From contig JAVZLS010000001.1 in assembly GCA_038883715.1 (NCBI GenBank), positions 1 to 64,000 of the forward strand: DNA of 64,000 nucleotides, written 5' to 3'. How positions within the stretch are numbered: position 1 is the stretch's first letter; every line of letters starts with the position of its first letter. The translations under genes and the position numbers were made by a program. Positions 2,506 to 7,348 of the stretch are shown here, in pieces. The DNA is from Candidatus Bathyarchaeia archaeon (GTDB lineage Archaea; Thermoproteota; Bathyarchaeia; Bathyarchaeales; Bathycorpusculaceae). The notes beneath the pieces are model-generated. The model did not search any database. It was not told the DNA's origin and saw only the letters and a program-made list of their open reading frames with translations.

Positions 2506-2850
2506 TTAAACGAAACCCGAAAATATTTGCATGATGCCAGACCCAAAATAAGGCTCATAGGGCTCCGGTAGTATAGCCCGGTCAAGTATTCCGGCCTTTC
2601 GAGCCGGAGACGCGGGTTCAAATCCCGCCCGGAGCACTCCTCTTTTATCAGAAACTACGTTTCCGATACCTTCCTTTTGGGAAGGCGTTTGATTTTGTGC
2701 TATTTTCTTGAAGCCGTTTGTTAATGTTTGTATTCCAATTTTTAAGGCGTTTTCACAGTATTGTGAAACGTTTAAGCCTAATTCTTGAGCTTGTTTTAAA
2801 ATTGCGTCTTCAATTAGGATTGTTGTTCTAACCTTCACAAACATCACCAT
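2506..2850 (-). CDS. Integrase N-terminal fragment Int(N) with RHH/CcdA-like DNA-binding domain; runs antisense through tRNA-Glu in the integrated state
   Basis: KVRTTILIEDAILKQAQELGLNVSQYCENALK resembles RHH antitoxin-type domains; reads VLRAGFEPASPARK across att in the same frame as Int(C); start could be 2868, 2850 or 2844. Confidence 0.8.
   Translation of the reverse strand: MVMFVKVRTTILIEDAILKQAQELGLNVSQYCENALKIGIQTLTNGFKKIAQNQTPSQKEGIGNVVSDKRGVLRAGFEPASPARKAGILDRAILPEPYEPYFGSGIMQIFSGFV
2562..2636 (+). tRNA. tRNA-Glu(TTC); integration target
   Basis: Cloverleaf: acceptor GCTCCGG/CCGGAGC, anticodon arm CCGGC-CT-TTC-GA-GCCGG, T-arm GGTTCAAATCC. Confidence 0.97.
2596..2639 (+). repeat. 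attL, 44-bp direct repeat (3' half of tRNA-Glu)
   Basis: ctttcgagccggagacgcgggttcaaatcccgcccggagcactc identical to 7305-7348. Confidence 0.97.
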
Positions 2851-2880
2851 GCATATTTGTATATACATTCACGCTTTCAC

Positions 2881-3450
2881 TCATGCCTTTTCACCTTCCT
2901 CTAATTTCTTACTTATTTTTCTGAACAGTCCAAGAAATTTGGGAATCATCTTCTCACCCACTTTAATCCTATGCTTTTCCGCAGCATTTTCGTCCAACAA
3001 CAAATCCCATATGCTTATCTTTTTCAGTTCCTCTTCATATTCAGAGGTTAGAGAGTTTAACTCGCCTCGTAAATCGTCAGGCAACTCTAAAGCTGGAAGC
3101 TCAGTTTTTAGGAGAAGATATAATCGCCTAGTAGCTGATTCAATATTCTTGTTTATAAAATCCTCTTTAATCCGTTCAACTTCAGCCCTAATTTCTGAAA
3201 ATAAGTCTCTAATGGTTGTTTGTTTGGCATTTTTTGGAAACCATAAACCTTTTTCGCTATACACTTTTCCCATAAGCTCTAGAGTGTTAAGGTAGCGGTG
3301 AACAGTGGTTCTATAACTTGGCGGCTTGCCAAGCTCCTCTGCGATTCCAACGGCTGATATTCCCTTTGTGCTACTTTGTTGCACTATTTTGTAGATACTG
3401 TCTAACTTTTCCATGAATTTACGTTTTCTTTTATCCATTTTTGTAGCCAC
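2881..3450 (-). CDS. Winged helix-turn-helix protein (element regulator)
   Basis: GISAVGIAEELG...RTTVHRYLNTLELMGKVYSEKGLW wHTH pattern plus helical C-terminal domain. Confidence 0.75.
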   Translation of the reverse strand: MATKMDKRKRKFMEKLDSIYKIVQQSSTKGISAVGIAEELGKPPSYRTTVHRYLNTLELMGKVYSEKGLWFPKNAKQTTIRDLFSEIRAEVERIKEDFINKNIESATRRLYLLLKTELPALELPDDLRGELNSLTSEYEEELKKISIWDLLLDENAAEKHRIKVGEKMIPKFLGLFRKISKKLEEGEKA

Positions 3451-3658: not shown

Positions 3659-3874
3659 ATGGCTAACCTAATTTTAACGGGAAACTGCAAATGCGGAAAA
3701 ACTTTCACCACAGCAGTTGAACTCCCAGAAACCATAACCATCAGAAGTGGAAATAGCGTTTACAACGCCAGATTGGGCGAACACTTAGTTGTCCAATGCC
3801 CAGCTTGCGGCAGGATCTTAAACCTGGGCAACGGGTCCAGGCGAAAAACTGAGGTGAAAAATCCTAATGTCTAA
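3659..3874 (+). CDS. Small zinc-ribbon protein
   Basis: CKCG and CPACG pairs; upstream GGAAGGG. Confidence 0.7.
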   Translation: MANLILTGNCKCGKTFTTAVELPETITIRSGNSVYNARLGEHLVVQCPACGRILNLGNGSRRKTEVKNPNV

Positions 3875-4145
3875 TTGCATTTTTAAAGTTAAGGAGAACC
3901 TTCAGACTCGTAGTGTGTTTTGTGAGAAGCTGCAGCAGTGGGTAAGCTCAAACTATTGCAATTTATGCCTTAACAGGGAAGCTTCCCCATCTACCAAAAC
4001 CACTAGTAATAATATCTATCTATCTAATAGATACGTACCTACCTACCTAAGCTCAAGCACCTACACCAAAACCAAAACACACCAAAACACTCCAAAACCA
4101 AACCTTCCTTCAAACAAAATTTTAATGTGTGATGTTTTGGCGTGA
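3867..4145 (+). CDS. Hypothetical Cys-rich protein; 3' half is low-complexity repeat DNA
   Basis: Overlaps both neighbours; C..C..CNLC in N-half. Confidence 0.5.
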   Translation: MSNCIFKVKENLQTRSVFCEKLQQWVSSNYCNLCLNREASPSTKTTSNNIYLSNRYVPTYLSSSTYTKTKTHQNTPKPNLPSNKILMCDVLA

Positions 4146-4609
4146 GCGAGTCTGAAAAGTCATGGGTTCACAAACTGTTTTTCAATGCCTATTTTGAAGA
4201 TGCTTTGGCAAAATATCGAGCTCAAACAGGGTTTGGCGAAAGCTATGCCATTCTCAATGCTCTAAACGAGTATTGGTTTCAAATAGGCGTAATGAGCAAG
4301 GAAGGATATGAGTACAACAGGAAACGTTATGGAGTCAGCTTAACAGAGAAGCTTAAAAAAGAGCTTGAAGCTGAACAGGAAGCTCAGAAAAAGGCGGATT
4401 TGCAGCAGCAGAAACCAATAGTTACTTCAAAAAGACCAGACTATTTCAATATGACTGATGACCAGCTTCTGGACCAATATTTGTTTGCTCAGAAAGTAAG
4501 TGATACTACGGCAATCCAGCTAATCCAATACGCTGCAATGAGGCGAGGATACAAATTCACACCAGACGGAAAAATAGTCAACATTAAAGGAGAAAAAGTG
4601 CTGGAATGA
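4142..4609 (+). CDS. Hypothetical element protein
   Basis: 155-aa ORF, GTGA/ATGA-type overlaps with neighbours. Confidence 0.7.
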   Translation: MSESEKSWVHKLFFNAYFEDALAKYRAQTGFGESYAILNALNEYWFQIGVMSKEGYEYNRKRYGVSLTEKLKKELEAEQEAQKKADLQQQKPIVTSKRPDYFNMTDDQLLDQYLFAQKVSDTTAIQLIQYAAMRRGYKFTPDGKIVNIKGEKVLE

Positions 4610-5992: not shown

Positions 5993-6059
5993 TGTATCAT
6001 CACTGCAAAGCTTAAACTTTTCAACTTTCGTTTAAATTGTCTTGAGAGGGTTTAAACAT

Positions 6060-6302
6060 ATGCGGTTTGTTGTAACTGCGGTTGTAGGCATCGTCATAGC
6101 CTTCATGATAGGCTTGGTTGTCGTAGGCAACCTGATAAGCAGCGTCAACAGTAGCGGCTGGAGCGCCCAGGCAAACAGCACATGGGAAAGTTTGGTAGGC
6201 AACGTTTGGACAGCCTTCGGATTGCTAGTGATAATCCCGCTTGTCATCGGAGCAGTGGTTCTTCTCCGCATGTTCAGCGGAGGCAGAGGAGAAGGCTTCT
6301 AA
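6060..6302 (+). CDS. Putative spindle-shaped-virus-type major capsid protein (80 aa, two hydrophobic helices)
   Basis: Two long hydrophobic segments separated by polar loop with N-x-S/T sequons (NSS, NST); own TATA-like box and T-rich terminator. Confidence 0.7.
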   Translation: MRFVVTAVVGIVIAFMIGLVVVGNLISSVNSSGWSAQANSTWESLVGNVWTAFGLLVIIPLVIGAVVLLRMFSGGRGEGF

Positions 6303-6452
6303 AGGGCTTACAGCCCTCAAACTCCCCCCTCTTTTTCTGTTTTAGCCTAGACTCATTTAAGAAAGTCAATCGCAAGAATCCAATCCTTAAACTTCTCGTT
6401 TCTCCGTTTCTTACACAACTTCATTACAATATATAAAAGAAAAAGGAGAATG

Positions 6453-7348
6453 TTAAGCGATTCTGTTTTGGATTTCCTTTATCGCTTTAAACACTCTATC
6501 CTTTAAGTCTTCTATCAACTTTGGATTGAAGTAGTTGCTCATGAAAATGTTGCTTGATACTCTTCCCACGAGAAAGTCTATTTCCGGCTGCGACAAATAC
6601 CTAGTTAAAATAGTGTTATGTGCTTCTCTTATGTCGCTGAACCTAACCGGTAAACCTCTATCTTTCAGTCTTTTCTGAACCGCATACTTGCTTTTTAAAG
6701 GCACTTCACAACATATCTTTTCAACAAGCGTTTTGGGAACAAAGCTGATAAACGCCTTTTTAGTGCGTCTAATGAAAACCTCTTTAAACCGGTAATGCTC
6801 CAGGCATTCATTCGCCTCATTATAGTATTGGTTAAGTTTGCCTTCCCTATGCAGCTTGATTATCAAGTTATAACTTTGAACCGCCTCATCTAGTCTTAAA
6901 CCAGTTAAAGCTATGAAATCCATGAACACGCTTAAGTCTTGCCTAACAGCTTTCACTTGCTTAACCCATTGCCAAACCTCTTCCGGATTCTTAACCTTGA
7001 CAAGACGCTCAATCACTAAATCATCAACGCTTTTACCAGTCCAGTCTATCCCATAACATTTAAGCAGACGCTTATAATCCTCATAGACTCCCAAAAATTT
7101 CGCCAAATTACTTAAAGCACTAACAACATGATGACGTAAAGTCTTTCTCAAAATTGCCACTTCACTTAAATCCATCTGGAATAGGCAATGAGCATAACGC
7201 TTAGCATAACTAACAATATCCTTAGCAATCCTTTCCCTGTGACTCTGAAGCAGCCAAATTTCAAACGCTTTCCAGTCAATCGCCTCAAAATCGCCTTCTA
7301 TGCACTTTCGAGCCGGAGACGCGGGTTCAAATCCCGCCCGGAGCACTC
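6453..7348 (-). CDS. int: Integrase C-terminal catalytic fragment Int(C), SSV1-type tyrosine recombinase
   Basis: TGLRLDEA (R), TKKAF (K), DIR (R), FLVGR, NYF (Y); frame begins within att repeat. Confidence 0.9.
7305..7348 (+). repeat. attR, 44-bp direct repeat
   Basis: Identical to 2596-2639; followed by a T-run. Confidence 0.97.

Follow-up and report, generated by a model that had tools for sequence, protein, structure and literature searches.

A small tRNA-integrated element of Bathyarchaeia carrying a probable homolog of spindle-shaped-virus major capsid proteins

The integrated element and its hairpin gene

The stretch analysed here, called the window, comprises 64,000 nucleotides of a Candidatus Bathyarchaeia archaeon (assembly GCA_038883715.1, contig JAVZLS010000001.1, positions 1 to 64,000, forward strand), parts of which are present in hot-spring metagenome runs. 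Its gene P0001 encodes an alpha-helical hairpin protein of 80 amino acids (aa) and lies within a 4,709-bp element bracketed by 44-nt direct repeats (Table 1). About eight genes make up this element: those of a winged helix-turn-helix (wHTH)-like protein, a zinc ribbon, three small or unknown proteins, a 189-aa protein named p189, the hairpin protein, and an integrase. Our analysis indicated that P0001 is probably a true homolog of the major capsid proteins (MCPs) of spindle-shaped viruses. In appearance the element is an integrative one of plasmid origin, into which the coat gene of a spindle virus has been taken up.

The repeat is 56 nt long in total, and its first 44 nt are identical in the two copies. 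The C-terminal part of the integrase matched PF16795 (E=1.2e-6, 29 bits against a cut-off of 27) and phrog_5127 (6.8e-12), and it was the only PF16795 match in its own genome. In-silico circularisation joined the two integrase parts in frame into one uninterrupted open reading frame (ORF) of 374 aa. Such rejoining of a split gene on circularisation is a hallmark of integrases with the attachment site attP inside their own gene. The features of the SSV-type class were all found here, that is, an attachment (att) site within the integrase gene, a gene split by integration at a tRNA, and flanking repeats. Homologous N-terminal integrase fragments (family F4) adjoin tRNAs in seven loci. An exact empty site was also found in the same-genus genome G375, where the left flank runs directly into the right one, the two overlapping by 43 nt. 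The att repeats, the integrase rejoined on circularisation and the precise empty site together indicate that this is a bona fide integrated mobile element.

Translation of the P0001 frame gave exactly the sequence listed in a first-pass annotation of the same DNA, which had described a hydrophobic two-helix protein with two glycosylation sequons in its linker and a Pro in helix 2. These traits were all recovered. AlphaFold2 with a 47-row alignment predicted a confident hairpin (predicted local distance difference test score, pLDDT, 92.8) with helices at residues 2–28, 36–56, and 58–73 and a break at the Pro. In the translation, the loop holds two sequons, N30-S-S and N39-S-T, and helix 2 is interrupted by Pro60. 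In the family alignment, at least one loop N-x-S/T is present in 107 of 110 members, and 54 of the 110 have Pro at the Pro60 column. Since Arg2 and Arg70/Arg76 flank the helices, the loop is predicted by the positive-inside rule to face outward.

As listed, the ORF starts at a TTG at 6042, six codons upstream of position 6060. This longer start was rejected, and the start at 6060 is supported, because in-frame stops stand directly upstream of the aligned start in four of eight homologous loci (L002, L046, L047, and L003). A GAGAGG-type motif lies 10–16 nt ahead of the P0001 start. The TATA-like element proposed at first pass holds up as a putative promoter: a box AAAG[CT]TTAAA[CT] is found about 50 nt before the start in six of the eight loci, with L002 and L003 differing. 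The T-rich tail noted earlier is likewise present, in the form of an inverted repeat (6303–6318) downstream of the stop codon and then a T-rich run (6330–6343), together a putative terminator.

Pairwise comparison of the eight homologous genes gave ratios of nonsynonymous to synonymous substitution rates (dN/dS) of 0.12–0.37 in 26 of 28 pairs, dS being saturated in the other two. These ratios argue that the frame is a conserved coding gene and no chance ORF, and by this measure the gene is under purifying selection.

A non-coding motif, TGTATCATCAC, is conserved at 5993–6006 of the window, downstream of the p189 stop and ahead of the promoter-like box that precedes P0001. It stands at the matching position in L002, L007, L009, L046, and L047, and several loci hold a partial copy, GTGTAATCACTG. 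It may be a candidate operator or recognition site.

In another congener, G396, whose flanks are ~98% identical, the tRNA-Glu holds a different island of ~16 kb (L069, G396:C1:108000-127000). Besides a 367-aa integrase adjoining the tRNA, its translations read as a pair of DNA methyltransferase-like proteins, a helicase-like protein of 518 aa, a possible prohead protease fusion of 431 aa, and a further protein of 608 aa. The tRNA-Glu site appears to be an insertion hot spot.

Table 1. Features of the integrated element and of the P0001 locus, in window coordinates
Feature	Position	Strand	Basis or remark
tRNA-Glu (TTC), integration target; 3' part is the attL core	2562..2637	+	ARAGORN; direct repeat
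attL core, 44 nt, identical to attR	2596..2639	.	Repeat search; core length measured
Split-integrase N-terminal fragment, ribbon-helix-helix (RHH)-like	2640..2868	-	ORF 2506-2868(-) reads through the left repeat into the tRNA
189-aa wHTH-like protein, putative regulator	2881..3450	-	Weak HTH_11/IclR/HTH_24 matches, E 0.003-0.1, all below cut-off
71-aa zinc-ribbon protein	3659..3874	+	Weak Zn-ribbon Pfam matches; homolog in L008
92-aa protein	3867..4145	+	ORF list; L008 homolog 80% identical
155-aa protein	4142..4609	+	Conserved in related elements L008, L011, L012; no Pfam or PHROG family
p189, 189 aa	5423..5992	+	Neighbour of the P0001 gene; conserved pairing
B recognition element (BRE)/TATA-like box AAAGCTTAAAC, putative promoter	6007..6017	+	Conserved in 6/8 aligned upstream regions
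Shine-Dalgarno-like GAGAGGG	6044..6050	+	GAGAGG/GGAGG-type motif at equal distance in 8/8 loci
P0001, 80-aa alpha-helical hairpin protein, probable homolog of spindle-shaped-virus MCPs	6060..6302	+	
Short inverted repeat, then T-rich run; putative terminator	6303..6343	+	Read from the sequence
SSV-type integrase, C-terminal (catalytic) part	6453..7304	-	ORF continues through attR to 7388 when integrated
attR core	7305..7348	.	44 nt identical to the attL core

Similarity of P0001 to spindle-virus capsid proteins

P0001 has 12 close homologs of 54–84% identity, which, where named, are called only 'hypothetical protein' of Bathyarchaeia, apart from one spurious transporter label. An exhaustive profile search extended the family to 110 clusters at E<=1e-3, with 18 at E<=1e-10. 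When a profile of 13 family sequences was searched against all PDB sequences, the sole match at E<=10 was 7xdi_A 'VP1' (E=0.054). With a profile of 47 sequences, 7xdi_A was first of 23 matches (E=0.0045). This structure is the VP1 of SSV19 (PMC10866085). Searched individually, 14 of the 47 members matched phrog_11172 (best 4.7e-5), more than matched any other PHROG; second came a 'membrane protein' family, with six of 47. That phrog_11172 is the fusellovirus VP1 family follows from SSV1 VP1, which matches it at 1.9e-73.

The closest sequence family found was the predicted MCP of the Nipumfusiviridae (records BK067782 etc.). A tblastn search of P0001 against 50,697 phage records matched nine, and the five records that covered 79–83% of the protein all belong to Nitrosopumilaceae spindle-shaped viruses, at E values of 1–6 that are singly insignificant. 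Comparison of the 110-member family with the Nipumfusiviridae ORF5 family by hhalign gave 96.7% (E 3.6e-10, 73 columns), with reversed controls at 6–10%. Comparison with the mature part of fusellovirus VP1/VP3 gave 56.5%, or 79.2% with a merged profile, with reversed controls at 2.6–11.2%. For scale, fusellovirus against His1 gave 19.9% and nipumfusivirus against fusellovirus 5.5%. By these profile comparisons, the 110-cluster family is a bridge between fusellovirus VP1 and the nipumfusivirus capsid family, matching both better than they match each other.

A further search with the family hidden Markov model was made against a decoy set of 6,987 ORFs, namely the host-genome six-frame ORFs of at least 45 aa together with SSV1, His1, and 8.6 kb of a nipumfusivirus. 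After P0001 itself, ranks two to four were taken by NMP1 ORF5 (5.7e-9), NMP1 ORF6 (0.038), and SSV1 VP1 (0.04). The best host ORF (0.12) came behind these three viral capsid proteins, and His1 ORF21 was ninth. Like VP1/VP3 of the Fuselloviridae (PF06281, phrog_11172, 7XDI), P0001 has two hydrophobic helices, loop sequons, and a Pro in helix 2, and many family members share with fusellovirus VP1 an extension ending in [KR]G before helix 1. It differs from VP1 in its weak profile similarity (56–79%), in having no propeptide, and in leaving PF06281 unmatched at E<=1.

Other results weigh against a capsid assignment, and some of them would fit an unrelated small membrane protein, such as a pilin-, holin-, or toxin-like hairpin, whose resemblance to capsid proteins is compositional. 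The per-sequence Pfam matches were sub-threshold and mostly to generic membrane families (FtsX in 12 of 13 members, DUF4064 in 10 of 13, a holin family in seven of 47, and TrbC/VirB2 in two of 47). His1_capsid was matched by P0001 at E 0.25, by nine of 13 members at E of at least 0.22, and by five of 47 with a best value of 0.003, and PF06281 was absent among the Pfam matches of P0001 at E<=1. Pfam alone does not decide the family. The second PDB match of the 47-sequence profile was 6w8u, which we take to be a type IV pilin (E=0.062, helix 1 only). Foldseek of P0001 against PDB and BFVD returned nothing at E<=0.001, and the fold searches gave only generic helical hairpins, an alpha-hairpin not being discriminable by fold. 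No relative turned up in IMG/VR by two pattern-based scans. Against His1 ORF21 alone, hhalign gave ~10%, with controls at ~1%. Moreover, the Nipumfusiviridae capsid protein is itself a computational prediction, according to the accessible text of its description (PMC10866085).

We nevertheless consider an unrelated membrane protein improbable. The reversed-sequence controls of hhalign were far lower than the forward comparisons, and none of the ~6,800 host ORFs ranked above the three viral capsid proteins. In the profile alignments, loop motifs beyond hydrophobicity are common to the P0001 family and the viral capsids, and family members lie on contigs with a spindle-virus ATPase. A pilin, either type IV or conjugative VirB2-like, was examined as a candidate and rejected, as P0001 starts directly at helix 1 with upstream stops in its homologs, and neither the element nor its relatives showed recognisable genes for conjugation, for pilus assembly, or for the corresponding ATPases. 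Leaders ending in [KR]G do occur in some distant family members.

The resemblance to spindle-virus capsids proposed in the first-pass annotation thus stands as probable homology, but its strong link is only to the predicted Nipumfusiviridae family (PMC10866085). Of the profile comparisons suggested there, the one with fusellovirus VP1 gave a weak link (56–79%), and so did the one with the halspivirus protein His1 VP21 (~10%). Pilins or cellular proteins as best profile hits with no viral context, the outcome that would have spoken for rejection, were not what the searches returned: pilin matches were marginal, and viral or mobile context is present.

The N-terminal extensions found in the family touch on VP1 maturation. 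P0001 itself has none, and 70 of the 110 members have one of at least 10 aa. Of the 74 members left after the extension filter, 50 carry [KR]G no more than 14 residues ahead of helix 1 and 21 carry [KRS]G[QE], a similar motif being found in 55 of 59 long fusellovirus VP1s. In archaeal prepilins, too, a [KR]G ahead of a hydrophobic helix marks the site of cleavage by class III signal peptidases. The SSV1 VP1 precursor (L004:12567-13001) reads ...KLTKG ahead of the mature Glu. The mature protein has been reported to begin at Glu66, and a conserved patch immediately before it to be essential (PMC5748691). The motif would suggest a class III signal peptidase as a candidate VP1-processing protease.

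Relatives, their contexts and p189

The relatives were compared at 36 loci, consisting of the window, two loci from genomes, 24 from metagenomes, and nine from a scan of 401 Bathyarchaeia genomes, of which seven matched, the own genome included. A family member is present in 33 of the 36. Two types of context were found, virus-like contigs and small integrated elements of ~4–8 kb beside tRNAs, the latter being the commoner for the relatives.

Among the virus-like contigs, L015 and L016 have the hairpin gene among membrane and secreted proteins, and they also encode beta-helix, LamG/polysaccharide-lyase-like, ParB-MT-A70, and integrase-like proteins and an ATPase that matches phrog_5484 at 6.4e-27. 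L028 encodes the hairpin, membrane proteins, an integrase, and an ATPase matching phrog_5484 at 3.8e-7. We take phrog_5484 as the hallmark ATPase of spindle viruses because SSV1 B251 (5.2e-101) and His1 ORF16 (2.8e-62) match it. Larger relatives with structural modules are L013, L015, L028, and L049. The two context types share genes besides the hairpin: a divergent gene for an RHH protein with a transmembrane segment (RHH-TM) stands beside the hairpin gene in both L003, a small element, and L015, and a family of 115–128 aa (F6) is common to both types.

The small elements have split or Zn-finger integrases and were found at tRNA-Glu (the window, L047, and L003), tRNA-Ala (L011 and L048), tRNA-Lys (L044), and tRNA-Thr (L043). 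Elements down to ~4.1 kb recur at different tRNAs. Some of the relatives encode replicases of plasmid type. L045 has an 822-aa protein with PriCT_1 (2e-9) and a P-loop, L048 has a Prim-Pol match (8e-4, below cut-off) and a 486-aa protein, and a 464-aa P-loop protein of L002 clusters with the plasmid-type replicases of L045 and L048. L002 is the nearest relative and occupies the same site as the window element. The two are 95% identical in the integrase, 72% in the capsid-like protein, and 64% in p189, and L002 has the replicase-like gene whereas the window element is without it. These differing identities, together with the gene present in L002 only, point to modular recombination among the elements.

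Three further observations concern single relatives. The product of L043:11469-15020 (tRNA-Thr, genome G288), 1,183 aa long, weakly matches protein-primed family-B DNA polymerases, below threshold (PF03175, E 0.0037). L003 (JAPDJO010000089.1) is a tRNA-Glu(CTC) mini-element with a 55%-identical homolog on a contig binned as Thermoplasmatota, a placement due to either cross-phylum spread or a binning error. The metagenome contigs L024–L026 hold only residues 25–78 of a family member, its C-terminal two thirds, overlapped by an opposite-strand ORF of 219 aa, and this partial gene looks like a remnant.

A homolog of p189 stands beside the hairpin gene in 15 of the 36 loci. Its absence is uninformative at many of the others because those loci are under 2.5 kb. 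In small elements, p189 always adjoins the capsid-like gene. The conserved protein has three parts, namely a novel alpha/beta domain at the N-terminus, a helix-turn-helix (HTH) after a low-complexity linker, and a C-terminal helical hairpin (AlphaFold2 pLDDT 73.6), and the window copy and 14 homologs make up its alignment (A4). A profile search against PDB gave weak HTH-type matches only. No Pfam, PHROG, or fold match was found for p189: Foldseek against PDB returned nothing, and the ESM Atlas scores of 0.78–0.79 are below a meaningful level.

A proposed satellite-like hybrid and the alternatives

The reading that we favour, at about even confidence, is that P0001 is a capsid subunit of an integrative, satellite-like plasmid-virus hybrid packaged with the help of a co-infecting spindle virus. 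P0001 is read as a packaging subunit because the element is without an ATPase or adsorption module, and because the archaeal elements called SRCEs and the plasmids pSSVx and pSSVi are analogues. A partial morphogenetic module in a small genome, as would be looked for in a satellite, was found: 4,709 bp with an MCP homolog and no recognised ATPase or tail genes. The integration machinery, the mobility (by the empty site), the homology, and the selection are all drawn directly from sequence comparison, and the steps set out next would build on them.

The integrase would excise the element at the 44-nt att cores, which by the predicted circular form would restore an intact integrase gene. The hairpin protein would be made from its own promoter and inserted into the membrane with both termini inside (N-in/C-in) and its sequon-bearing loop outside, where it would be glycosylated. 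It would then polymerise around the excised DNA, forming the kind of helical hydrophobic lattice that characterises spindle-shaped virions, and the adjacent HTH protein p189 could mark or condense this DNA. The ATPase, tail, adsorption proteins, and replicase would be borrowed from a co-infecting spindle virus of the L015/L028 type. An element that would borrow these functions would therefore be a satellite with a coat gene of its own.

The element can be compared with several known systems. Both pSSVi and pSSVx are about 5–6 kb in size, and pSSVi has an SSV-type integrase and integrates. They have been described as plasmid-virus hybrids that spread in spindle-shaped particles with a helper (PMC1635272; bioRxiv 10.1101/2025.02.15.638363). 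The accessible part of the latter source names them as the only two archaeal virus satellites described before its SRCE proposal of 2025, and it reports that pSSVx encodes a homolog of the ATPase, not of the MCP (bioRxiv 10.1101/2025.02.15.638363). Our element is the reverse, having the MCP without the ATPase, and the host phylum also differs.

SRCEs are described in the same preprint as episomal circles of 2.7–9.0 kb from hypersaline Halobacteriota and Nanohaloarchaeota, which combine a spindle-virus MCP and/or ATPase with plasmid replicases and are proposed to be satellites (bioRxiv 10.1101/2025.02.15.638363). The Bathyarchaeia element is similar to them in its small size (4.7 kb), its partial morphogenetic module, and the primase-helicase plasmid replicases of its relatives. 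Unlike the episomal SRCEs, however, it is integrated in tRNA-Glu by an SSV-type integrase and belongs to hot-spring Bathyarchaeia, it has the MCP without the ATPase, and its window copy has no recognisable replicase. The p189 partner, conserved in the Bathyarchaeia elements, is also absent from the SRCE descriptions in the accessible portion of that preprint.

The Huangdiviridae (Xuanyuanvirus yandi) are represented by a spindle-shaped provirus of Bathyarchaeia (PMC10541130, PMC12451623), with two-helix, sequon-bearing VP1/VP3-like capsid proteins, a tyrosine integrase, an AAA+ ATPase, and a polysaccharide lyase (PMC10541130). They share the host class with the element, and their gene content, compared by the published description as far as accessible, is like that of contig L015. 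By the same description they are full-size viruses with more than 40 numbered genes, whereas the element has ~8 genes and no ATPase.

Several results count against packaging by a helper. Pfam and PHROG scans recognised no replication protein in the window element, so that the plasmid-type replication module seen in its relatives was not found in this copy. In the own genome (90.3% complete, 41 contigs), P0001 is the sole family member and a search for the spindle-virus ATPase gave just two short P-loop matches, and in none of the five other carrier genomes was that ATPase found at E<=1e-5. The candidate helper-type contigs L015 and L028 come from other samples. On the sequencing side, neither a circular junction nor an empty-site joint was cleanly seen in contigs of four runs. 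X2 and X14 showed 2640 joined to 5104 with 10 extra letters in between, on sides of only 20–23 letters that make it unreliable. The X1 contig depth was similar in the element (~216–270) and its flanks (~270–345), such depths not being copy numbers.

In one alternative, the element is not itself packaged and the MCP homolog would act as a decoy: when a related spindle virus arrives, it would co-assemble with that virus's capsid and poison it, or block entry at the membrane, to the protection of both host and element. The evidence for capsid homology fits such superinfection exclusion equally well, the conserved promoter-like box predicts that the gene can be expressed while integrated, no helper is resident in the carrier genomes examined, and SRCE satellites have been proposed to titrate helper structural proteins, in the part of the preprint that is accessible (bioRxiv 10.1101/2025.02.15.638363). 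Nothing at the sequence level separates a decoy from a functional subunit. However, the tight linkage to the integrase, the att sites, and the plasmid replicases of relatives fits the element's own spread, and the pairing of p189 with the MCP homolog (15 of 36 loci) would be left unexplained. We therefore regard this alternative as unlikely.

Slightly less likely still is a particle made without any helper, in which P0001 and p189 would wrap a 4–5-kb circle into a small lipid-associated, transferable particle or vesicle, which would place it among the smallest dsDNA virus-like agents of archaea. The conserved core of p189, MCP, and integrase in the small elements would agree with this, as would the recurrence of ~4.1 kb elements at different tRNAs and the lack of helper genes in the six carrier genomes. 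To our knowledge, however, all described spindle-shaped viruses have dedicated adsorption proteins, and the element has none. We also know of no precedent for a helper-independent minimal particle of such kind. As far as the accessible sources go, the AAA+ ATPase is a hallmark of all described spindle-shaped viruses (PMC10866085; bioRxiv 10.1101/2025.02.15.638363), and none was found in the element. In a bolder form that we hold to be improbable, the trio of integrase, p189, and hairpin protein would be a self-sufficient agent that moves between Bathyarchaeia in its own coat or in a coat-studded vesicle. If true, no smaller dsDNA mobile element that encodes a capsid would be known from archaea, and the agent would stand as a living link from plasmids to spindle-shaped viruses.

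That the element is a decaying remnant of a larger spindle-shaped provirus with a non-functional capsid gene would suit the larger relatives with structural modules and the replicase of L002 that the window copy lacks, but is improbable in view of the att cores (44/44 identical), the integrase that is intact once circularised, the dN/dS of 0.12–0.37, the repetition of the small architecture at four tRNA species in different genomes, and the precise empty site in G375.

Much of what surrounds the favoured satellite reading is already in print: Bathyarchaeia homologs of spindle-virus MCPs (Huangdiviridae), MCP-bearing satellite-like circles (SRCEs), and integrative fusellovirus satellites (pSSVi). 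No published description of tRNA-integrated, MCP-bearing Bathyarchaeia mini-elements with p189 was found in a search of literature outside subscription journals. If this reading is true, the Bathyarchaeia mini-elements would extend the capture of a spindle-virus coat gene by plasmids to another phylum, to hot springs, and to an integrative lifestyle, and p189 would be an added candidate for a packaging or recognition factor. The bridging family of 110 clusters should also aid the detection of spindle viruses in metagenomes.

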